The position numbers and the translations under genes were made by a program. 64,000 nucleotides of DNA from Nitrososphaeria archaeon (GTDB lineage Archaea; Thermoproteota; Nitrososphaeria; JACIWG01): assembly GCA_963752255.1 (NCBI GenBank), contig CAVVXT010000012.1:192001-256000 (forward strand), written 5' to 3'. The notes below the pieces were generated by a model. The model was not told the DNA's origin. It saw only the letters and a list, made by a program, of their open reading frames with translations, and searched no databases. How positions within the stretch are numbered: position 1 is the first letter of the stretch; the number at the start of each line of letters is the position of its first letter. Shown here piece by piece: positions 40,025-49,831 of this stretch.

Positions 40025-41719
40025 GTGCGAGAAAACTTGGAAAGGAGTCTTACAGATAAAGTCATCGCCTTAGCAAAGAGAAGAGGGTTTTTTTGGCAGG
40101 CCTATGAAGCCTACGGTGGTACCGGAGGATTCTATGTCCTCGGAGACCTTGGTACGAGACTTAAAGAAAATATCGTTAAGCTATGGAAAGAAATATTCCT
40201 CGAGCCCTACGGGTTTATTGAAATAGAATCTCCTACGATAGCGCCTTATGCGGTGTTCGAAGCTTCAGGACATGTTGGGTCATTTAAGGATGCAATGGCC
40301 GAGTGCTTGAAGTGTACCAACAAGTATCGTGCAGACCACCTTCTTGCCGAACAGGGAGTAAATGTCCCAGAATCAACCGAACTTAATACACTCGAGAAAC
40401 TCCTAAACGAGAACAAGATAAAATGCCCTGAATGCGGAGGCATCAAATGGAAAGTAAGCGCCTTTCTGACGATGTTTCAAACAAACATCGGGCCTTATGG
40501 CGAAAACATAGGATTCCTAAGGCCAGAAACAGCGCAAGGCATGTTTGTCGAATTTAAGCAGCTATATGAAAGTAACAGAGCGAGAATACCGATAGGTGTA
40601 GCCCAGGTGGGTAAAGCATACAGAAACGAAATTTCTCCGAGGCAAGGCCTCATTCGACTGAGAGAATTTTCTCAGATTGAATTAGAGTTCTTTTTTAACC
40701 CTTCATATAACAAGTGCGAGCACTTAGATAAAGTTGAAGGTATAAAGATGAACCTGTTAGATGAATCGAAGGTTGGTCAAGGTGATGGGACACCGTACAA
40801 AGTTTCGGCAAAGGAAGCAGTTGAAAAAGGCTTTGTTAAACAGGAATGGCTCGCTTTCTTTATGGCACTGTCCCAGAAGTTCATACACGAACTTGGTATA
40901 AACTCTGATGACATAAGATTTAAGGCGAAACTGGTAGGGGAGAGAGCGCACTATTCAGCGCAAACTTTTGACCAAGAAGTCCTGACCGAAAAATACGGTT
41001 GGGTTGAAGTAGCTGGCCACGCGTACAGACAGGATTACGATCTCAAATCCCATACCTTAAAGGGGAACGTTGACATGCACATAGTCGAAGAACTTAAGGA
41101 ACCTATCAAAGTAAAGAAGACGCTCGCATACCCTAATTCGGTTAAAGTCAGGGAAGAATTTAAAGAGAAGGCTTCAGAAGTTTTTAAGAACATTTCTAAG
41201 TTTGATTCCAAAACACTGGCGCAGGAATTGGAGGAAAAAGGTAAAATTGAAATCGGAGGAAAAGACATGGGAAAAGAATATTTTATATTCAAAGAGTTAG
41301 AGGAAACCGTTGCTACGAGAAAGTATATTCCTCACGTCATAGAACCAAGTTTTGGAATAGAGCGAATAATCAACGCGGTACTAGAACACGCTTACAGGGA
41401 GAAGGAGGACAGAACTATACTTTCTTTAAATGATAGGATAGCACCATACAGGTATGCTGTTTTTCCTCTGGTTAAGAAAGACGGTTTAGATGTTAAAGCA
41501 AAAGAAGTCTATATCATGATTAAGACAATAGATGTGAGGACGTTATATGACGATGACGGTTCTATAGGGAGAAGATATGCTAGAGTTGATGAGATAGGAG
41601 TGTCTAAAGCTATTACGATAGATTACCAGACCTTAGAGGATGAAACAGTAACCGTAAGGAGTAGAGATAGCTGGGACCAGGTAAGGGTTGACATAAACCA
41701 TCTTTTGACAGCTCTTTAG
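40025..41719 (+). CDS. glyS: Glycine-tRNA ligase (alpha2 type)
   Basis: LRPETAQG, YRNEISPRQG..RLREF.Q.E, E.AHYS, EPSFG..R, SIGRRYAR.DE. Confidence 0.96.
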   Translation: MRENLERSLTDKVIALAKRRGFFWQAYEAYGGTGGFYVLGDLGTRLKENIVKLWKEIFLEPYGFIEIESPTIAPYAVFEASGHVGSFKDAMAECLKCTNKYRADHLLAEQGVNVPESTELNTLEKLLNENKIKCPECGGIKWKVSAFLTMFQTNIGPYGENIGFLRPETAQGMFVEFKQLYESNRARIPIGVAQVGKAYRNEISPRQGLIRLREFSQIELEFFFNPSYNKCEHLDKVEGIKMNLLDESKVGQGDGTPYKVSAKEAVEKGFVKQEWLAFFMALSQKFIHELGINSDDIRFKAKLVGERAHYSAQTFDQEVLTEKYGWVEVAGHAYRQDYDLKSHTLKGNVDMHIVEELKEPIKVKKTLAYPNSVKVREEFKEKASEVFKNISKFDSKTLAQELEEKGKIEIGGKDMGKEYFIFKELEETVATRKYIPHVIEPSFGIERIINAVLEHAYREKEDRTILSLNDRIAPYRYAVFPLVKKDGLDVKAKEVYIMIKTIDVRTLYDDDGSIGRRYARVDEIGVSKAITIDYQTLEDETVTVRSRDSWDQVRVDINHLLTAL

Positions 41720-42438
41720 ATATTCGATACTAAAGGTTTTACCTTCTGCAATTTGGACAAACTGGCTATGATATCGTTTTCACTTGGTAAAAGGGTTACA
41801 CCGAGAACTATGCAATCTTTCTTTGATATTTCTATGGCAAGAGGATCTACTTCTTTGGGCCCATGCAATATTACCATCCTTGGCTTTATCTGAGAAACCC
41901 TTACTGCTACAATCGGTGAGCGTCCCAGACCCACCTTGGTAAAGACAAGAACACGTTCTGAATTGTAGCCGAAGATCTTTATGAAATCCAAGCCAGACAT
42001 TGTAAGAATAGTCTTGATGCTATCTAAAACCGTGTAACCATAAATTTGTTTATTAATGCAGTCCTCTCCAGCCAAGACATCGGCTTTAAGGGCGTCAATT
42101 ACCTGTTTTACAGAAACAGGATGTTCATATTCTCCAATGGAAAGAATAGCTGATTCACTTATAGGAACATCCAGCTTCCCAAGTATTCTATTAGACTTTT
42201 GGTCTATTTCTACAAGACCCTTAACATATTTCTTTACGAAGATTGTGCCAGGGGAACTCCTCTTTCCACTTTCGTAATCGCTTAATACAGCAGGCGAAAT
42301 ACCAAGCTGTCTTGCTAAATCCACCTGTTTGATGTTCAGCTTCTCCCTCCAAATCTTCAGTGAAATTCCTACGTTTTCACTTAGTACAATGTCACCGACA
42401 ATCTTCCTCATAATCTCATCGTATTGTAGAGACATCAT
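41716..42438 (-). CDS. XRE-type HTH transcriptional regulator with C-terminal DRTGG-like domain (COG1709-like)
   Basis: Q..LA..LGISP..LSDYESGKR.SPG; GYTV.DS.K.I, GRSP.VAVRV. Confidence 0.85.
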   Translation of the reverse strand: MMSLQYDEIMRKIVGDIVLSENVGISLKIWREKLNIKQVDLARQLGISPAVLSDYESGKRSSPGTIFVKKYVKGLVEIDQKSNRILGKLDVPISESAILSIGEYEHPVSVKQVIDALKADVLAGEDCINKQIYGYTVLDSIKTILTMSGLDFIKIFGYNSERVLVFTKVGLGRSPIVAVRVSQIKPRMVILHGPKEVDPLAIEISKKDCIVLGVTLLPSENDIIASLSKLQKVKPLVSNI

Positions 42439-42509
42439 TATAATCTAAAATTCACTATTTAAAAAGGTTTAAGTGACCAAAACTCAGAGGGAAAGATCTG
42501 AAGGCTCGC

Positions 42510-43979
42510 CTATCTGGCTACTATCTGCAAATCGTTCTTGAAGAATCTTTTTGTTTCTCCTAATGCCTGGAAATCTGTTGGAGCCACTTGAATGAGCGAT
42601 GGCATATTCGCTGCAACCCTGCCGATTACAAGACAATGACGTTGTGGTAAAGTCCGAACAAGAGATTCTATAGTGTCGACGTCGACGGTTGAAGCTCTAG
42701 AAACCATTCCAAGATCGTTACTGTTTACAAAATTAAATAAGAAGATGTTGTCGGCTTGTCGATAGATTCCCTGAGGTATTGCATCAGGCTGGTTTGTAAT
42801 AAAGGTTGTAAAGATTCCGTAATGGCGCATTCTTGTTATCATATCATCCCAATAAGTGTCTCTAAGGTAAAGATGAGCTTCTTCAGCAAACAGAAAAGTT
42901 GGTGGGATCCTATTGCTTTCTAGAAGATCGCATATTTTGTTCAAAATCGCCTCCACAACGATCTTTCTTGTCAGAGAAGAGGTTTTACCCAGCTGTATTA
43001 TGAACGCCACCCCATCACCATGTTGACGGAAGAGCTTTTCAAGTTCAAAGGTTTTTTCGATTTCGTCTGAAAAAAGTCTTGAAGACAGAATAGAATAGTA
43101 TCTTGTAAAGAGCGCATCTCTCACAAACTCATTACACTTCCAACTCTGTATTGTTTCACCAAGATTCTTGATCGTTAAACACCCCTTCGACTCCAGACTG
43201 TCTATGATACGAATAAACTCCCTTAATGAGACACCAGGAGTATCCAATACATTCTGCAGCACATTAACAAGGGTTCGCTTACCAATATAGCTTAAGGAAA
43301 ATAAAAGATTTTCCCCGGGCTTAAGACACATAACCTTCTTAGTGATGCCGTTATCTGAACCATCACTTCTTTTTGAGATACCTCTATATTCGTTGTTTAT
43401 ATCAAAGACTATTACGTAAGCGCCATTCTCGACGAGTTTTGATACGAGCATCTTTGATAAATGCGACTTTCCAGACTCCTTCTTTCCCGTTATTATGTTT
43501 AGCTGTCCGTCCAGATTATTTAAACTGATATGGTAAGGTTCACCGTCTGAAGTAATTCCTATCGTAATGTTCATGTCAGTTTTGCCTAATATTCTTGAAT
43601 AGAGATCTTTTATTCTAACGCGTTTAATCTTGGAAGCTGTTCTAGAAGGAAGCCACGCCGATATCGGTATGAACTTACCTTCTTCAAATGAACCCCTTAT
43701 CTTGCATTTAAGAAAACGCATGTCCATGAGCATATATGATAACGCCCCTATCTGCAATGGATCGTTTTCCGTCGAAGGGGCTGAAGATTTAATAACTTCG
43801 TCTCTTACAATATCGTCTAGGAAATTTGATGAATCGAGGTACGTTTCTTCATAGATTTGGACAACCATTTCTTTATTAACGGTGTTATCCTCGATTATCA
43901 GATACTCTCCCTTCTGTATTTCTTCGCTCGGTAACGCGAGAACTACGATTTCATCACCTTTTTTCGATACAATTCTCAT
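42510..43979 (-). CDS. herA: HerA-family helicase/ATPase (divergent paralog)
   Basis: N-terminal HAS-like barrel, Walker A GKKESGKS, FD.N.EY, Walker B FAEEAH, R.RH.G, TNQP. Confidence 0.82.
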   Translation of the reverse strand: MRIVSKKGDEIVVLALPSEEIQKGEYLIIEDNTVNKEMVVQIYEETYLDSSNFLDDIVRDEVIKSSAPSTENDPLQIGALSYMLMDMRFLKCKIRGSFEEGKFIPISAWLPSRTASKIKRVRIKDLYSRILGKTDMNITIGITSDGEPYHISLNNLDGQLNIITGKKESGKSHLSKMLVSKLVENGAYVIVFDINNEYRGISKRSDGSDNGITKKVMCLKPGENLLFSLSYIGKRTLVNVLQNVLDTPGVSLREFIRIIDSLESKGCLTIKNLGETIQSWKCNEFVRDALFTRYYSILSSRLFSDEIEKTFELEKLFRQHGDGVAFIIQLGKTSSLTRKIVVEAILNKICDLLESNRIPPTFLFAEEAHLYLRDTYWDDMITRMRHYGIFTTFITNQPDAIPQGIYRQADNIFLFNFVNSNDLGMVSRASTVDVDTIESLVRTLPQRHCLVIGRVAANMPSLIQVAPTDFQALGETKRFFKNDLQIVAR

Positions 43980-45028
43980 ATGCTTGTTGAACCTCCTTCA
44001 AACTTTAATCCGCCTAGGAGCGATTTTCTCAGCCTAGTTGCGGGAACTTGTATTATGTTAAGAGAGCGAGCTAAGGCACTCTTAATAGAGACCTGCTCAA
44101 CATTGCTGAATATTGAAATACTGTGCGACATCATTAACGATTCGGGGTAACCGAGTCTGAAGCCGTCATTGTTTAAAATCTTTCCAAGCACGGTGTCAAC
44201 ATCGAAGTAAGAATGATATGGTATATCCGTCCTAAATGCGTAACCATGCTTCTTGAACTTTACAACAAAAATGTGGCCTTCAACCTTAGACAGCATACTG
44301 TCTATGATATGGTGCACATCAACTTTGACTGGAGCGTAGTTTAAAATTTCTAGATAGTTCACCACCCTTTTAATGAACTTCAGTTTACTACTTTTTGAAA
44401 TACCCACTATCGTGTTAGAGTTTCCTTGTGCACATTTTATTATTTCTTTGAGACTGAATCCTTCGACTTCAAAAATTGAAGACCTCAGCGATCCATCGCA
44501 TAGGATCAAGCTACCATTTAATATTGTGGACATATACTTTAAGACCTCTCTTTCTATTACAACCCTCACCAGATTCTTGGCGTACTCATGCTCGGAGATT
44601 ACAAGCTTTACAAGCTTCTCCCTAAGAGGGTTGTCGTGATAGACCTGTCTCATCGCCTGCTCGTCAATATAAACAACATACGGCCCATAGATATAGTACG
44701 CTTTAGGTTTTCCGTTATAGTATATTGAAACTCCTGATTTAACGGCATAGAGAGCACCCTGTTCTGTTTCACCAATTGATATACATGAAGAATCTATGCC
44801 TGCAACGTCACAAGGTTCTTCTACCTGTTCAAAAGGTTCAACATTTAATGGTATAGGTGAAGTAAACAATGAGACTATCGGCTTAAGTTCGTCACAGTCT
44901 CTTTCATGGAACATTATCTTCATGCCAAAAGCTTTGTTAACATCAAAAAGGTGTGTGAAGGTTTGATCGAAGACTTTAACTTTATTATCTTGAATATTTT
45001 CTAGAGGAACATTTATTTTGTTGTTCAT
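43976..45028 (-). CDS. nurA: NurA-family nuclease; start probably 45028
   Basis: AGIDSS, CDGSL, GISKSS, GYPE.L...H; stop overlaps the herA start. Confidence 0.8.
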   Translation of the reverse strand: MNNKINVPLENIQDNKVKVFDQTFTHLFDVNKAFGMKIMFHERDCDELKPIVSLFTSPIPLNVEPFEQVEEPCDVAGIDSSCISIGETEQGALYAVKSGVSIYYNGKPKAYYIYGPYVVYIDEQAMRQVYHDNPLREKLVKLVISEHEYAKNLVRVVIEREVLKYMSTILNGSLILCDGSLRSSIFEVEGFSLKEIIKCAQGNSNTIVGISKSSKLKFIKRVVNYLEILNYAPVKVDVHHIIDSMLSKVEGHIFVVKFKKHGYAFRTDIPYHSYFDVDTVLGKILNNDGFRLGYPESLMMSHSISIFSNVEQVSIKSALARSLNIIQVPATRLRKSLLGGLKFEGGSTSI

Positions 45029-45085
45029 GTTGAACAATATAGGTGGGCAGTGATAGGATATAAATGTTGTGCAAGTTGAACAACA
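45019..45085. promoter_or_regulatory. Twin palindromic operator TTGT(T/G)CA-N3-TGAACAA flanking a TATA-like box in the nurA / wHTH divergent promoter
   Basis: TTGTTCA-TGT-TGAACAA at 45021-45037 and TTGTGCA-AGT-TGAACAA at 45067-45083, with GATATAAA between them. Confidence 0.7.
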
Positions 45086-45095
45086 ACAATATAAT

Positions 45096-45485
45096 ATGGT
45101 GTTAGATTTGAACAACCTTGTTAGAATCAAGATAAAGAGAGGAAGCTGGGAGATAGAAGTTGAATGTGACGAAGAAAAGGTCGCTGATGTAGTCTCTAAA
45201 GTTCTAGCTGGATTTGACAGTGGTATATCAAGCGTTCAAACAGGGGACGTAAAGGACACCGGTGGAGTTACATGCCGGGGTTTACTTGATAACATGTGGA
45301 GAGAAGGCTGGTTTATGGTTTCTAAGAGGCTTTCTGAAGTTGACGAAGAACTTGCTAGAAGAGGCTACCACTACGATAGGTCAGCGATTTCTCACGCCTT
45401 AACAGACCTTGTTAGAGAGGGTATATTGACGAGGGAAGGTGAGTCCAGAAATTATCATTACGTACAGAAGAAGCCGCCGTTATAA
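45096..45485 (+). CDS. Beta-hairpin module + winged-helix protein 1
   Basis: VRIKIKRGSWEIEVE N-terminus; W.EGWF....RLSEV...L...GYHY....IS.AL..LV.EG.L.R.G...Y.Y wHTH. Confidence 0.78.
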   Translation: MVLDLNNLVRIKIKRGSWEIEVECDEEKVADVVSKVLAGFDSGISSVQTGDVKDTGGVTCRGLLDNMWREGWFMVSKRLSEVDEELARRGYHYDRSAISHALTDLVREGILTREGESRNYHYVQKKPPL

Positions 45486-45487
45486 AT

Positions 45488-45988
45488 CTACGTTTTTGAT
45501 CTCTTTTGAAGTTGTTGTCTTAACCATTCTATTCCTAATGTAGTCATCTTATAGGTGACACCCTTCTCTGAAGACTCCCTTTCGATATGGTTGGCCTTCA
45601 CTAGTTCACTGATCCTTGAACTAATGCTCTTTGAATTAAGTCCAGTACTTGACTGAATCTCCGGTAGAGATAAATTTGGTGAAGCCTTCTTGCCCAGAAG
45701 ATATTCGATCTTTGCTGCGACTAACTGCAAAGAAATGATCTCTTTATCGCTAAGGTCAGTTGACCAGATTCTTGCACCTTCAGGGGTGATTCTGATGAAG
45801 TTAGAGAATGAAATCATTAGATCGTTCAAACTAAAATTTGAGGAAATCTTTTGTGCAAGATCGTACTGAGGAAGTTGCTGCTGAACGAATTGATTAAACT
45901 GTCGCACCACTTCTTCGGGCGAACCTGAAAACTCTATTCTTAAAAGGCCGAATGTTATCGTCACATTTACCTTATTTGTTTCTGACAT
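45488..45988 (-). CDS. Beta-hairpin module + winged-helix protein 2
   Basis: VNVTITFGLLRIEFSGSPEEV; LSL.EI...TGLN.KSISSRISELVK....ER......YK.T..G. Confidence 0.78.
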   Translation of the reverse strand: MSETNKVNVTITFGLLRIEFSGSPEEVVRQFNQFVQQQLPQYDLAQKISSNFSLNDLMISFSNFIRITPEGARIWSTDLSDKEIISLQLVAAKIEYLLGKKASPNLSLPEIQSSTGLNSKSISSRISELVKANHIERESSEKGVTYKMTTLGIEWLRQQLQKRSKT

Positions 45989-46521
45989 TATACATCACCA
46001 TGTGCTTCCGCAGGATTTATTGGTTTCGTTGTATCTAACTCTTGTGGAGCCTGCTCAGCTACCGCAGAAATTAACTGCAGGTAAAGGTATTCGCCTGATT
46101 CATTTTTGAATCTTCGAACCTTACCTCCTTTTGTAAGTCTAAGAAGGGTCACCGCTGCAGTTGATCTCGTCAAAGGGAAACCCAGTGTTTCGAGCACTTT
46201 CCTTATCTCATCCAACTTTCTCGGCTTTTTACCCCAACTTGAATTAACAATTTTAACTATGATATCTCCTATCGAATCTTCTTTGAAGATCTGTATCGGC
46301 GGCAATTGTAGATCAGATTCTTGTGGCAACGTCTTTACTTTATCTTGTCCCGTTTGAATGCCCTCATTTACGATTACAGAACTTTGGTTGTGAACAGCTA
46401 CTTGTTTAGCTTCCTTTGTGGAGTCGACGATCCTCGGAATTAGGTCGATAGAAGAAACTATTTCATCTATTGTACCTTCAAATTCTACTTCCGAATAGCC
46501 TACCTTCACCCTTAAGCGCAT
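45988..46521 (-). CDS. Beta-hairpin module + winged-helix protein 3
   Basis: MRLRVKVGYSEVEFEGTIDEI; W...PR.L.EI...LE..G.......V.L.RL.K.GKVRR.K...G.Y.Y. Confidence 0.78.
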   Translation of the reverse strand: MRLRVKVGYSEVEFEGTIDEIVSSIDLIPRIVDSTKEAKQVAVHNQSSVIVNEGIQTGQDKVKTLPQESDLQLPPIQIFKEDSIGDIIVKIVNSSWGKKPRKLDEIRKVLETLGFPLTRSTAAVTLLRLTKGGKVRRFKNESGEYLYLQLISAVAEQAPQELDTTKPINPAEAHGDV

Positions 46522-46612: not shown

Positions 46613-48506
46613 TTATTGTTTACTCTCCACAACTTTTCTTATTTCTTCCTTAAGAATAGCCGAAACAACTCTACCGTCAACCTTTCCTCTGACTCTATGC
46701 ATAACTTCACCCATTAGAGCACCAAAGCTTCGATCTTTTTGCTCCTCTATAAAATTCAAATTGGAGTTTACAGTCTCGGCGATGATGCTTCTCAATTCAT
46801 TATCAGATATCGCTCTCAAACCAATTTTTTCAGCCGACGCCTTTGCATCGACTTTATTCTTGCACATGTAACGCATAATATCAAGGGAACTTTCTTTCGA
46901 AACTGCTCCCGAATCTATGAGATCGAACAGCTCGGCACACCGTTGCTCATCTAGAAATGAAGTGTCAAAACCTTCTCTGCTCAGGCTAACAATAGACTCT
47001 GTTAGCGTGACAGCAACGTAAGTTGTGGATAACTTCGTTCTAGCACAAGTTTTTTCAAAAAGAGAAAGATAATTCGAATCAAGAAGTTGGACCGCAAGTT
47101 TTTCGTTAATGCCATATCTGTTTATGTAATCTTTTATAATTTCATTCCAAGGTTTAGGGACTCCCCTACTACACTCTTTGAGAAGCTGTTCTGTCACTTG
47201 GATAAGCGGAATATCGGTTTCAGGATACATTCTTGCAGCACCAGGCCTCGGCCTTGAATACTTGGTTCTTCCTTCAGGCAATGGACCTCTGGTTTCAGGT
47301 GGAGGGCCCTCAAAGAATATTAGAGCTCTCTGACGCACAGCCAACAGAGCGGCTTCATCTTTTTTGGAAGCAAAGATAAGAAAGAAACCGTCCTGGACGT
47401 CGGTACCGAGCATCTTCTTTACTTGCTCAATTTCTTCCAAAGTTATGCCGTAAGAAGGTAATTCATCAGAATGCAGGATGCCACCTAAGCCATTAGCTCT
47501 AGCCATTTCTGCAAGCTCTAACCCCAATCTAACGTTAGGAGATGGCTCAGCACCAAGAAGCCCCTTAAATCCAACGAGCTTAATTCCGTAAACATTTTTA
47601 CCACTGTCAAGCGACTTCTTCACGATTTGGGAATAGGTGTTTTGGAATGCTTTTGATACATCAACATAGAGCCCAATAGACGAACTAGATGTTAACCCTC
47701 TTTCTTTAAGAGATTGTGCTATCTGGTAGAGGTAGTCCTGCCTAAACGCCTCATACTCTACAATCTTGGGTATGAGATCAAGTTTCTGCACCCCCTTAAC
47801 TTCCGAAGGAAGAAGATTATGAACTGAAACGTTAAGATCTTGCCTTATAGATCCAATTCCCCTAGCCACCAATTTCGTGAGACGTAAGAGCCTTCCTAGT
47901 TCGAGTGCAACTCTCTCAACCACCTTAGGTTCTACAGACATCGGCGTCAGTGCGATCTCAACAAGAGGTATTCCAAGGCGATCTAAAGAGTAAATTTCTA
48001 GAATCATCGCTGTCTTCGATTATTCTCGCAGCATCTTCTTCTAGAGACACTGTCTGAACGGGAACTATAAGTTCATCGACCTTTAATGACCCACCTAGAG
48101 CTACAAGAACCGTTCGCTGGAAGCCGGTCGTGTTTGAGCCATCAATAACGATCTTTCTCATAACATGCATTTCCTGTACAATATTGGAGTCTAAAGCTAA
48201 AGCTATTGTAATTGCTGCCTTTGCAGCGTCAAAGTTTATCGGATGGGGAGGCTCTTCATCACATTCGACCAGACACGCTCCATCCTTGTTGTAGAGATAT
48301 ACATTCGTCTTGCCCTTCCTGAATTCGTAGAGGACCGCAGGATCCATCTGGCCTAGCTCGCTCTGGGTGGGTCTAAGTCTTCTCGTTATCTTTGAGTGGA
48401 CTATATCAGTTTCCAAAGGGGGACAATCACAGAACAGTTTTTTCCCTACATCAAGCTGTTGATGGATTTCCAGTCCCGCTTTGAAACCAACTTGCTTATA
48501 GTCCAA
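46613..48506 (-). CDS. gatE: Glu-tRNA(Gln) amidotransferase subunit E; one extra base at about 47996 (probable sequencing indel)
   Basis: GLEIHQQL...KLFC, MRKIVIDGSNT.GFQRT, LEEDAAR, LDRLG.PL.EI, RPRPGAARMYPETD. Confidence 0.93.
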
Positions 48507-48508
48507 TC

Positions 48509-49831
48509 TTATTCACTTCCCTCGACGATTAACCTTGAACAATATTCACCTGCAATATTTTCTTTCATAACTTTTACCACGTCTTCGGCTTTAAAATTGC
48601 CGAGGCACCATGACAACTTGATAAAGGCGGTCTCGGGCAACATATCCTCAAGAGGAATGACTCCTGCTTCAAGCAGATCACGTCCTGTATCGTAGACGGT
48701 TAACCTAACACGACCGTATATGCACTGCGAAACCATGCACGCAATTAAACCATCCCTTATCAGCTTCTTCAAAGTCTTTACGGCGGGGCTGTTGACGTGG
48801 CCTAGACCTGATCCTTCAATGACGACGCCCTTAAACCCGTTATCGTAAAGACTTTCCAATATTATAGGATCAAAGTTTGGATAGAACTTGACAAGCGAAA
48901 CTTTTCCATCAAATTTTGTGAGGGTCTCGAATTCTGAGGGGGGCTTCCTCTTGGGTAGGTCATTTCTTGAAATGTTCAACCTGCTATTTTCATAGACTGC
49001 AACAGGATCTGTGTTAACGGATTTGAATGCATCTCTCCTGCTTGTATGCAACTTTCTGACCTTTGTCCCCAGATGTATCGCTATCTTGTCATCAGAAATC
49101 CACTTGTGCATTGAAACGTACACGCCCGCAAATGGGGCTTTCAAAGACGCATTCATGGCGGCGATAAGGTTTGTTGCAGCATCAGAGGAAGGCCTGTCGG
49201 ATGACCTCTGTGATCCAACTATCATTATCGGTATGGGAGTTTTGGAGAGGGCAAAACTTAGGGCCGCTGCAGTATATGCCAGAGTATCTGTTCCATGTGT
49301 GACGACAATCCCTTCGTACCCCTTCTTGATATAGTCGTGGACATATTCAGAAAGCTTACTCCAATGTAGTGGAGTCATGTTTTCGCTATATATGCTGGAC
49401 AATACTTTAGCGTCTATTTGAGCTACCCCAGCCAGTTCAGGAACTACTGAGAGAAGATCGGAAGCGGAGAGAGCAGGTCTAACACCTCCCGTCCTATAGT
49501 CGACTCTGCTCGCTATTGTGCCACCAGTGCTTATTATTACGGCATATGGTAAATTTTTTGATGAAACAATTTCTTGTTGTGGCACAAAACCAGGAGGGGA
49601 GTGTTTCTCAATCAAAAGAATCGATTTTATTGCATCAGATTTTAAGCCTATGTTATACCCGTTAGGAAGCTTTAAGGTTAGAAAACCCTTTGACGCATAT
49701 TCATATCTGGGAATTATAGTGCCCTTATATTCACCTTCAGAAGTGATAACCCTCACAAAGTCCCCTGCACCAATTTTGTTTTCTTCCAACAATTTTTTCA
49801 GAGCACCGCTATATCCCGAAAGGTCCTTCAA
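48509..49831 (-). CDS. gatD: Glu-tRNA(Gln) amidotransferase subunit D
   Basis: KL.NGYNIG, STGGTIASRVDY.TG, HGTDT, QRSSDRPSSD, HTSRRDAF. Confidence 0.96.
   Translation of the reverse strand: MKDLSGYSGALKKLLEENKIGAGDFVRVITSEGEYKGTIIPRYEYASKGFLTLKLPNGYNIGLKSDAIKSILLIEKHSPPGFVPQQEIVSSKNLPYAVIISTGGTIASRVDYRTGGVRPALSASDLLSVVPELAGVAQIDAKVLSSIYSENMTPLHWSKLSEYVHDYIKKGYEGIVVTHGTDTLAYTAAALSFALSKTPIPIMIVGSQRSSDRPSSDAATNLIAAMNASLKAPFAGVYVSMHKWISDDKIAIHLGTKVRKLHTSRRDAFKSVNTDPVAVYENSRLNISRNDLPKRKPPSEFETLTKFDGKVSLVKFYPNFDPIILESLYDNGFKGVVIEGSGLGHVNSPAVKTLKKLIRDGLIACMVSQCIYGRVRLTVYDTGRDLLEAGVIPLEDMLPETAFIKLSWCLGNFKAEDVVKVMKENIAGEYCSRLIVEGSE

Follow-up and report, generated by a model that had tools for sequence, protein, structure and literature searches.

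Genes at the nurA-herA locus

The window analysed here is a stretch of 64,000 nucleotides (positions 192,001 to 256,000 of the forward strand of contig CAVVXT010000012.1) from the Nitrososphaeria archaeon assembly GCA_963752255.1. According to the list of open reading frames, six of them lie within positions 41716-46521 of the window, encoding an XRE-HTH/DRTGG-fold protein, HerA, NurA and three small proteins designated sA, sB and sC:

41716-42438, minus strand: protein of 240 aa that combines an XRE-type HTH with a DRTGG-fold domain at its C-terminus, immediately downstream of herA
42510-43979, minus strand: HerA-type hexameric translocase ATPase of a divergent clade, 489 aa
43976-45028, minus strand: NurA nuclease, 350 aa from the likely ATG at 45028
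45096-45485, plus strand: sA, divergent from nurA, with its likely ATG at 45096 within an open frame of 45069-45485
45488-45988, minus strand: sB, a paralog of 166 aa, converging on sA with a gap of 2 nt
45988-46521, minus strand: sC, a paralog of 177 aa with an architecture as in sA, overlapping sB by 1 nt

The open frame of nurA extends beyond its likely ATG, up to position 45130 (43976-45130, minus strand). As the original prediction had it, nurA and herA are coupled, their stop and start overlapping by 4 nt (43979/43976), and neither mre11 nor rad50 adjoins the pair; the junctions described for the small genes were also found, with 67 bp between the ATGs of sA and nurA, ends at 45485 and 45488 for sA and sB, and the overlap of 1 nt at 45988. 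Comparison with a 96%-identical relative revealed purifying selection on all six genes, with pN/pS values of 0.014 to 0.30.

NurA, and a HerA of a distinct clade

The NurA of the window matched Pfam family PF09376 with 21.5 bits (cut-off 21), and the same family was matched by 27 of 32 NurA orthologs, with a best E-value of 3.6e-15. Its translation contains the motifs GIDSS, DGSL, SK and GYPESLMMSH, and the acidic, lysine and histidine motifs that had been pointed out earlier fall on columns that are invariant in the 32 orthologs (D79, D178, K212, Y294, P295, L298 and H302); E159 is retained in at least 90% of them. When a profile of the orthologs was compared with NurA of S. solfataricus (2YGK), a match with an E-value of 3.6e-5 was obtained in which the D, DGSL and GYPE..H blocks align. 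We take the conserved acidic and histidine residues to form the RNase H-like active site of NurA, where they presumably bind metal.

HerA matched Pfam DUF87 (PF01935; E 1.6e-9, 38.6 bits, cut-off 23.2), and its best match in the PDB was HerA of S. solfataricus (4D2I; E 4e-7, residues 92-474 against 84-469). The strings GKKESGKS (Walker A) and FAEEAH are both located on invariant columns, the residues G165, K167, G170, K171, S172, E366, E367 and A368 being the same in 25 HerA orthologs. Judged by sequence, the catalytic motifs of NurA and HerA are all intact. The N-terminus of HerA (residues 14-199), where a HAS-barrel domain would be expected, matched positions 16-181 of the NCBIfam model HerA_Thermprot weakly, with 32 bits, and lies for its first 91 residues outside the alignment with 4D2I.

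In the HerA tree, proteins of the window type form a separate clade. The NCBIfam HerA models gave the window HerA 24-45 bits versus 175-243 bits for HerAs of the same phylum that are encoded in canonical operons, and the match to 4D2I had an E-value of 4e-7 for the window HerA versus 3e-40 for a canonical-operon HerA. With the equivalog models NF040937 and NF040819, the window HerA reached 32.4 bits (cut-off 800) and 14.2 bits (cut-off 970), respectively, cut-offs below which the same-phylum HerAs of Rad50-Mre11-HerA-NurA operons (175-243 bits) remain as well. By sequence criteria the window HerA thus belongs to a non-canonical clade, and tree and model scores agree in placing it outside the canonical repair clade, in keeping with the separate standing proposed for it. 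HerA of this type is also present in named Nitrososphaera, Nitrosocaldus and Nitrosopolaris records. The HerA of one family contains an intein.

Three small winged-helix paralogs

Among sA, sB and sC, pairwise BLAST comparisons gave E-values of 0.04 to 2.7 and left their paralogy invisible. Profile-profile comparison with hhalign, in contrast, connected sA with sC (probability 99.2, E 3e-19), sB with sC (probability 95.9, E 6e-9) and sB with sA (probability 83.5, E 8e-6), each alignment spanning an N-terminal hairpin-helix and a C-terminal winged helix, and thereby confirmed the relationship claimed for the three proteins. In sA, a linker joins the hairpin-helix to a winged helix of strong conservation, the C-terminal block is invariant or near-invariant in an alignment of 42 sequences, and pN/pS is 0.046 relative to the 96%-identical relative. 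In sB, a structured middle part separates the hairpin-helix from a winged helix with an additional C-terminal helix. Judging by the secondary structure of the sB model, tandem winged helices resembling those of kite proteins (ScpB/MukE) or of ESCRT-II (Vps25) are conceivable. The AF2 model of sB (pLDDT 86.5) resembles winged helices of the MarR/PadR/AspA type with Z-scores of 10-11 (AF1382, MarR, PadR) and AspA (5K5O) with a Z-score of 10.1 over 81 aligned residues, all of these VIA-align comparisons spanning residues 75-166 only. A Foldseek search of the PDB with the sB model returned only generic MarR/AspA entries with E-values of about 1e-3, and the sB profile matched the sequence of AspA with an E-value of 6e-4. 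The sA profile had no significant sequence match in the PDB (best E 0.15), and the N-terminal halves of sA and sB had none in PDB profile searches. All Pfam matches of sA, sB and sC were below cut-off (E 0.008-0.1). The family profile of sB collects 349 cluster representatives at E≤1e-10, and an Atlas search with sB found only clusters of hypothetical proteins. Fused forms of the small proteins exist, joined to a protein kinase, to DUF488 or to an unassigned N-terminal domain. Complex prediction for sA, sC and sB together gave a score of 0.01 against a mark of 0.32, a result that counts neither for nor against binding.

The XRE protein

The original prediction of an XRE-DRTGG regulator after herA is supported by its position, by its HTH (Pfam HTH_3, E 3.8e-10) and by its fold, and not by a Pfam DRTGG sequence match, which was found at E≤1 in none of 14 orthologs. 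In the AF2 model (pLDDT 79.4), residues 107-233 superimpose on 2IOJ with a Z-score of 12.8 and an rmsd of 2.3 Å over 113 of 120 residues, the top match among 48161 chains, and on 3L31 with a Z-score of 10.8; 2IOJ is a structure of Pfam DRTGG (PF07085). Atlas scores for the C-terminal part stayed below 0.8. Among the 80 named loci, 22 have the gene downstream of HerA, whereas the first set of 40 loci has none. Its product would be a lineage-specific additional regulator with a domain of the small-molecule-binding type.

A putative paired operator in the divergent region of sA and nurA

The region from which sA and nurA diverge contains a putative paired palindromic operator of 17 bp with the pattern TTGNNCA-N3-TGNNCAA:

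45021-45037, no strand assigned: operator O1, TTGTTCATGTTGAACAA, overlapping the nurA start codon
45058-45065, no strand assigned: A+T-rich element read from the sequence as TATA-like, ATATAAAT, between O1 and O2
45067-45083, no strand assigned: operator O2, TTGTGCAAGTTGAACAA, at a distance of 46 bp from O1, with the ATG of sA following 13 nt downstream

From the usual geometry of archaeal promoters, we infer that ATATAAAT is a shared promoter core. In the whole genome of 2.1 Mb, O1 is the sole perfect TTGTTCA-N3-TGAACAA, against an expectation of 0.019. A perfect operator occurs in 71 of 112 NurA-upstream regions versus 0 of 2080 control windows, and an operator with at most one mismatch in 95 of 112 versus 19 of 2080, figures for which the pattern was derived from a few of the loci later counted and related genomes are non-independent. 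Each of the ten specified positions is conserved in 120-169 of the 169 sites, whereas the N positions are variable; 57 of the 112 regions have two copies, and a distance of 46-48 bp accounts for 47 of the 73 spacings counted across loci. The operator (at most one mismatch) tracks sA: 90 of the 94 loci in which sA is divergent have it, versus 5 of 18 without a divergent sA. It is independent of the XRE gene, being present in 76 of 92 loci that lack the latter.

A search of the genome for an operator regulon with the general pattern yielded 6 matches versus 2.5 expected; two of them are those at nurA/sA, and the remaining four fall within open frames. No perfect operator was detected in 9 loci of a second HerA clade (clade 2) or in 14 co-directional or other loci, and none was detected near displaced sB genes; there was nothing in all of these beyond scattered one-mismatch matches. 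Since the operator is missing from co-directional and clade-2 loci, operator binding cannot be the general role of the small-protein family. The protein sA has the hallmarks of a factor that recognises a specific sequence, with a conserved operator of its own. Of the DNA-binding or adaptor complex that was originally envisaged, the family of DNA-binding paralogs stands, and an adaptor role for sA gives way to that of a probable local transcription factor.

Linkage and genomic neighbourhood of the module

Of 37 window-type loci fetched from the phylum sample, 36 have small genes next to the orthologous NurA-HerA, as do 73 of 80 named records of Nitrososphaeria, which were gathered by a search with the HerA alignment; the seven named loci without small genes are records that begin at a contig end no more than 330 nt from NurA. 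The winged-helix genes are therefore linked to nurA-herA in related genomes, and this conserved linkage, together with the paralogy found by profiles, supports the proposal that NurA-HerA, together with DNA-binding paralogs of its own, makes up a conserved and uncharacterised module. In a sample of 301 genomes, HerA and sB were both present in 92, HerA alone in 11, sB alone in 28 and neither in 170. In six families of the sB-only group, small genes flank the second HerA clade, with NurA upstream of HerA, so that the small-gene family accompanies two HerA-NurA clades with different gene orders.

The winged helices are like those of common regulators, and two families (f13 and f18) have their sB genes next to gatD-gatE, far from HerA. 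Both observations would suit mere inherited gene order, in which the winged-helix proteins were ordinary transcription factors of unrelated genes. We consider this very improbable, given the association of the family with both clades in different gene orders, the co-occurrence of HerA and sB, and the position of the operator exactly in the nurA/sA region.

The gatD-gatE genes recur in the first set of loci, and gatE was inside the fetched stretch in 41 of the 80 named loci. Because this synteny is conserved and the module appears from sequence to be single copy, the degradation of foreign DNA, put forward earlier as a possible function, is unsupported. The related idea of a HerA-effector type of defence against viruses or plasmids, in which the winged-helix proteins would be the sensors, draws on HerA ATPases serving in known defence systems and on weak matches: PADLOC found only its HerA and mad8 models, on HerA only (E 3.5e-15 to 1e-8), and NCBIfam models of anti-phage HerA gave 36 bits (cut-off 800). 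PADLOC matched no family on NurA and gave only weak winged-helix rows for the small proteins (E≥9e-4), and Pfam and PADLOC detected no Sir2, DUF4297 or other effector at the locus, the partner of HerA being NurA. The chromosomal site by gatD-gatE is constant across families and no variable defence islands were seen there, purifying selection is strong, the distribution tracks families (11 of 11 genomes in f11, 18 of 18 in f17, 11 of 11 in f30), and Mre11-Rad50 adjoins the module in three related loci (L049, L055 and L058). A defence function is thus extremely improbable, and the evidence points to an unstudied module for self-regulated DNA processing and not to a mobile defence island.

Relationship to Mre11-Rad50

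In the genome to which the window belongs (94.7% complete), Mre11 was detected neither with a single protein nor with a profile of five sequences, Rad50 was represented only by a C-terminal remnant of 150 aa, and a genome search found no mre11-rad50-herA-nurA operon. Another gene with a NurA domain and two further DUF87 ATPases each occur singly, so that the NurA-HerA of the window is the only coupled pair in this genome and cannot be called a second nuclease-translocase module, as had been supposed. Similarly, in family f7 Mre11 was found in 2 of 17 genomes and the module in 15 of 17. Across the 80 named loci, the Mre11 profile labelled no gene, unlike the gene order NurA-HerA-Mre11 given in the accessible part of a report on two Nitrososphaera-related bins (PMC13707971).

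The presence of the module where Mre11 was not found is among the arguments for an alternative in which the small proteins would load the enzymes or be stoichiometric subunits of them, forming a hetero-oligomeric DNA-end-binding adaptor that might possibly substitute for Mre11-Rad50, with operator binding by sA being secondary. The joint retention of 2-4 diverged paralogs across many families, as seen in tree and locus maps, would fit such a role, as would small genes that are co-directional and tightly packed with nurA-herA in many lineages (e.g. L058, L054, L064 and L083), the co-directional loci without operator, and the fusions of the small proteins. However, sA looks like a sequence-specific factor with its own operator, sB genes have been relocated beside gatD-gatE in f13 and f18, and Mre11 is encoded elsewhere in the genome in most module-bearing families (15 of 16 genomes in f13, 6 of 6 in f18, 4 of 4 in f31). 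We therefore regard the subunit role as possible and rather doubtful.

Proposed function of the module

To the reading that the locus is a module for processing DNA ends, passed on by vertical descent, with sA as a local regulator and sB and sC as co-regulators or adaptors, we give a slightly better than even chance from the sequence data. By homology, the ring of the HerA ATPase would feed DNA to a NurA dimer, which would digest DNA ends. Expression would be controlled locally through O1, over the nurA start, and O2, before sA, which flank the TATA-like element. The best conserved of the three paralogs, sA, would bind these operators as a dimer and repress nurA-herA as well as its own gene; the signal on which it leaves them would probably be DNA damage. 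Through the common N-terminal hairpin-helix, sB and sC may act together with sA, whether as hetero-oligomeric co-regulators or as DNA-binding adaptors that serve the enzymes. The retention of 2-4 paralogs is left unexplained by a model in which they are regulators only. It is conceivable, if unlikely, that the hairpin-helix modules hold sA, sB and sC together in a hetero-oligomer that recognises DNA when it is broken or single-stranded, leaves the operators, docks on NurA-HerA and loads it at ends, replacing Mre11-Rad50 where the latter is missing. If so, one set of proteins would both sense damage and induce the resection machinery, and Nitrososphaeria, Bathyarchaeia and their relatives would possess an undescribed DNA-damage response.

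Work on HerA-NurA has, to our knowledge, dealt almost exclusively with hyperthermophiles, in which it acts together with Mre11-Rad50. The pair described here is of a distinct clade and combines with a dedicated winged-helix family and a sharply defined operator, and its carriers include lineages of ecological weight, namely soil ammonia oxidisers and Bathyarchaeia. We found no description of the module in the literature searched, and the paired operator in the sA/nurA region is a new finding. In the accessible parts of genome papers, herA and nurA are given as recombination genes of these archaea (PMC5797428, PMC7554672, PMC13707971); such entries differ from the textbook system. The module offers a testable entry to the control of DNA-end processing in these archaea, and the two 17-mers, 46 bp apart, are a bench target for gel-shift and footprinting experiments with sA.

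Comparison with known systems

In Sulfolobus, Pyrococcus and Thermococcus, canonical end resection by HerA-NurA is encoded in herA-mre11-rad50-nurA operons. Like the canonical enzymes, the NurA of the window is translationally coupled to a HerA ATPase, its catalytic blocks align to 2YGK, and the alignment of HerA with 4D2I extends over almost the entire protein. Unlike them, this HerA is in a separate clade with low NCBIfam HerA scores, the pair is without adjoining Mre11 or Rad50, and pairs of this type have 2-4 winged-helix paralogs and a conserved operator. In the accessible parts of the HerA-NurA literature searched, we found no mention of such paralogs or of an operator, and no regulators or accessory proteins of HerA-NurA.

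In fold, the C-terminal half of sB matches MarR/PadR/ArsR regulators and the centromere-binding AspA of pNOB8, and the arrangement of a small, divergent putative regulator gene with a palindromic operator is also familiar from the MarR/PadR/ArsR type. In contrast to these regulators and to AspA, the small proteins have an N-terminal hairpin-helix and form a fixed paralog set, and unlike MarR/PadR/ArsR no Pfam family was assigned to sA, sB or sC at cut-off.

Sir2-HerA, DUF4297-HerA and the Ced import system likewise employ a HerA-family ATPase, and the window HerA weakly matched the NCBIfam models of CedD and anti-phage HerA, far under their cut-offs. Its partner, however, is NurA and not Sir2, DUF4297 or Ced membrane proteins, and, unlike anti-phage HerA systems, the module occupies a conserved housekeeping neighbourhood.

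In actinobacteria, the two paralogous winged-helix proteins of PafBC jointly switch on the DNA-damage regulon. As in PafBC, paralogous winged-helix proteins are co-encoded at the locus studied here and would be tied to DNA-damage genes; unlike PafBC, they have no WYL domain detectable with Pfam and no sequence relationship to it, and in place of a regulon the operator appears to target a single locus in its own genome.

Gene organization of the nurA-herA locus

Open reading frames in the stretch that harbors the module lie almost throughout on the minus strand, and the features of the locus, with genes taken from the ORF listing, are as follows.

41716-42438, minus strand, XRE-type gene
42510-43979, minus strand, herA
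43976-45130, minus strand, nurA, likely ATG at 45028
45021-45037, nurA/sA intergenic region, putative operator TTGTTCATGTTGAACAA
Between the two putative operators, nurA/sA intergenic region, ATATAAAT
45067-45083, nurA/sA intergenic region, putative operator TTGTGCAAGTTGAACAA
45069-45485 (open frame), plus strand, sA, with 45096 as the likely ATG
45488-45988, minus strand, sB
45988-46521, minus strand, sC
46613-48007 and 47958-48506, minus strand, gatE in two frames
48509-49831, minus strand, gatD

The junctions described in the original prediction were recovered: there is an overlap of 4 nt between nurA and herA and of 1 nt between sB and sC, and a gap of 2 nt separates the convergent genes sA and sB. 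The start codons of nurA and sA are about 67 bp apart. The two frames of gatE (46613-48506, minus strand) overlap, and the gene contains one extra base when compared to a 96.4%-identical public record. This is the only indel over 8.9 kb, and the split of gatE reflects a frameshift or else an error in the assembly.

NurA and HerA form an intact enzyme pair

The HerA of the module matches DUF87 with an E-value of 1.6e-9, and its closest solved structure is that of Sulfolobus solfataricus HerA (4D2I; residues 92-474). NurA lies at the Pfam threshold (21.5 bits at a cut-off of 21), 27 of 32 orthologs match the NurA family model, and a profile built from the orthologs reaches S. solfataricus NurA (2YGK) with an E-value of 3.6e-5 and three aligned motif blocks. 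The acidic, lysine and histidine residues of NurA to which the original prediction had pointed indeed occupy invariant columns of the ortholog alignment. The NurA-HerA enzyme pair is intact. In one family (L087:3042-5552 and L101:2962-5556), HerA is 836-864 residues long due to an intein, which was identified in the one sequence tested, L087, as PF14890 (E = 5.9e-20).

The small proteins share a common architecture

Pairwise BLAST revealed no significant match among sA, sB and sC, and profile-profile comparison unites the three along their whole length. In their common plan, a beta-hairpin and a helix make up the N terminus and a winged helix the C terminus; the linker between these parts is structured in sB, and in sA and sC it is variable. 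In the sB model (pLDDT 86.5), residues 75-166 resemble winged helices of the MarR/PadR/AspA type (Z 10-11). No match was obtained for the N-terminal half in fold searches with the sB model or in PDB searches with the sA and sB profiles, and no family was assigned at significance to sA, sB or sC by Pfam, NCBIfam or PADLOC. A profile search of the full library yielded 349 cluster representatives of the small-protein family (E ≤ 1e-10), and these, where a source names them, are listed as hypothetical proteins (Nitrososphaerota, Aigarchaeota, Verstraetearchaeota, Bathyarchaeota). A quick tree of 92 small proteins resolved sA, sC and two types of sB as four subfamilies. Three kinds of fused forms occur among the sB-family proteins P0019, P0140, P0101 and P0103, namely a protein kinase with two sB C-terminal halves (three members from two sources), sB with DUF488, and sB preceded by an N-terminal domain of about 200 residues with a PD...ExK-like string.

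Small genes are linked to nurA-herA across the phylum

Within a sample of 301 genomes of the phylum, HerA of the window type was present in 103 and sB profile matches in 120, with both occurring together in 92 genomes and neither in 170. Forty HerA places were fetched, comprising 37 window-type loci, one lone paralogous pair and two canonical operons. Small genes adjoin NurA-HerA in 36 of the 37 window-type loci, the lone exception being a locus where the contig ends 1.8 kb past NurA, and both canonical Rad50-Mre11-HerA-NurA operons are devoid of small genes. Twenty-eight genomes had sB only; in loci fetched from six families of these, a second HerA clade is flanked by small genes, and the gene upstream of this HerA is a NurA (PF09376, E = 1e-13 to 1e-23). 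In a set of 80 named records, covering Nitrososphaera sp., Ca. Nitrosocaldus, Ca. Nitrosopolaris and many Nitrososphaeria MAGs, small genes were found in 73, and the remaining 7 are cut at NurA. An XRE gene follows herA in 22 and gatE is near the module in 41 of these 80 records. At L093, L095, L096 and L098 (families f13 and f18), sB/sC are separated from NurA-HerA and lie directly by gatD-gatE, with sA still at nurA.

A conserved palindrome in the nurA/sA region

The perfect form of the putative operator, a 17-bp palindrome, is unique in the 2.1-Mb genome (0.019 occurrences expected). The general pattern TTGNNCA-N3-TGNNCAA was perfect in 71 of 112 NurA-upstream regions versus 0 of 2080 control windows of the same loci, and present with at most one mismatch in 95 of 112 versus 19 of 2080; the pattern had been derived from some of the loci counted, and the counts include relatives that are not independent. 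Its specified positions are nearly invariant and the N positions variable. Regions with two copies form the largest class (57 of 112), and 47 of 73 operator-to-operator spacings measure 46-48 bp. A further match to the general pattern, at C19:109851-109867 of the same genome and outside the window, falls within an open frame (C19:109011-109934, minus strand), 55-70 nt downstream of its 5' end.

The operator follows the divergent sA, being present in 90 of 94 loci with and in 5 of 18 loci without it, and is absent from clade-2 and co-directional loci. The XRE gene is dispensable for the operator, which is present in 76 of 92 loci lacking that gene. For the XRE protein, Pfam reports an HTH only, so that the DRTGG label of the original prediction finds no counterpart there; at the fold level the label is right, because residues 107-233 of the model (pLDDT 79.4) match the DRTGG-domain structure 2IOJ (Z 12.8) and the CBS-DRTGG region 3L31 (Z 10.8).

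sA is best explained as a local repressor of the module, which would probably also be autoregulated, and sB and sC may be either co-regulators or adaptors. A live alternative is that the small proteins are subunits of the NurA-HerA machine; it is sustained by co-directional, operator-less arrangements in other lineages and by the fusions of sB-family proteins to a kinase and to DUF488.

Relation to Mre11-Rad50 and to canonical HerA-NurA

The module is under strong purifying selection, keeps a fixed place by gatD-gatE and is distributed family-wise; because of these features and the intact enzyme pair, it fits an inherited DNA-end-processing function rather than a defence island. In the genome carrying it (94.7% complete), no Mre11 was found with two queries, and Rad50 is represented only by a lone 150-residue C-terminal piece with an LSGGE signature (C17:1841-2293) and a second, partial copy of this piece on contig C18; a full Rad50 of the same type was not found there. 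The other NurA-domain gene and two other DUF87 genes of this genome each stand alone. Elsewhere in the genome (C19:426548-429907), a gene for a 670-residue SMC/Rad50-like ATPase precedes two small genes of 256 and 196 residues; judged from the open reading frames, this group looks like a short SMC-type set and not Rad50. In family f7, the module is present in 15 of 17 genomes and Mre11 in only 2 of 17.

Within the literature examined (PMC13748450, PMC4158269, PMC5797428, PMC13707971, PMC2643942, PMC7554672), neither an operator nor winged-helix partners are described for HerA-NurA. In one genome (L055), Rad50-Mre11-HerA-NurA is followed directly by a window-type HerA-NurA with four small genes, and in another (L058) Rad50-Mre11 is followed directly by the window-type pair with three small genes. 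The HerA sequences form three separate clades in a FastTree phylogeny in which long branches are flagged. On NCBIfam HerA models, the window type reaches 24-45 bits, whereas HerAs encoded in canonical operons within the phylum reach 175-243 bits, and the match to 4D2I has an E-value of 3e-40 for canonical-operon HerAs but of 4e-7 for the window-type HerA.
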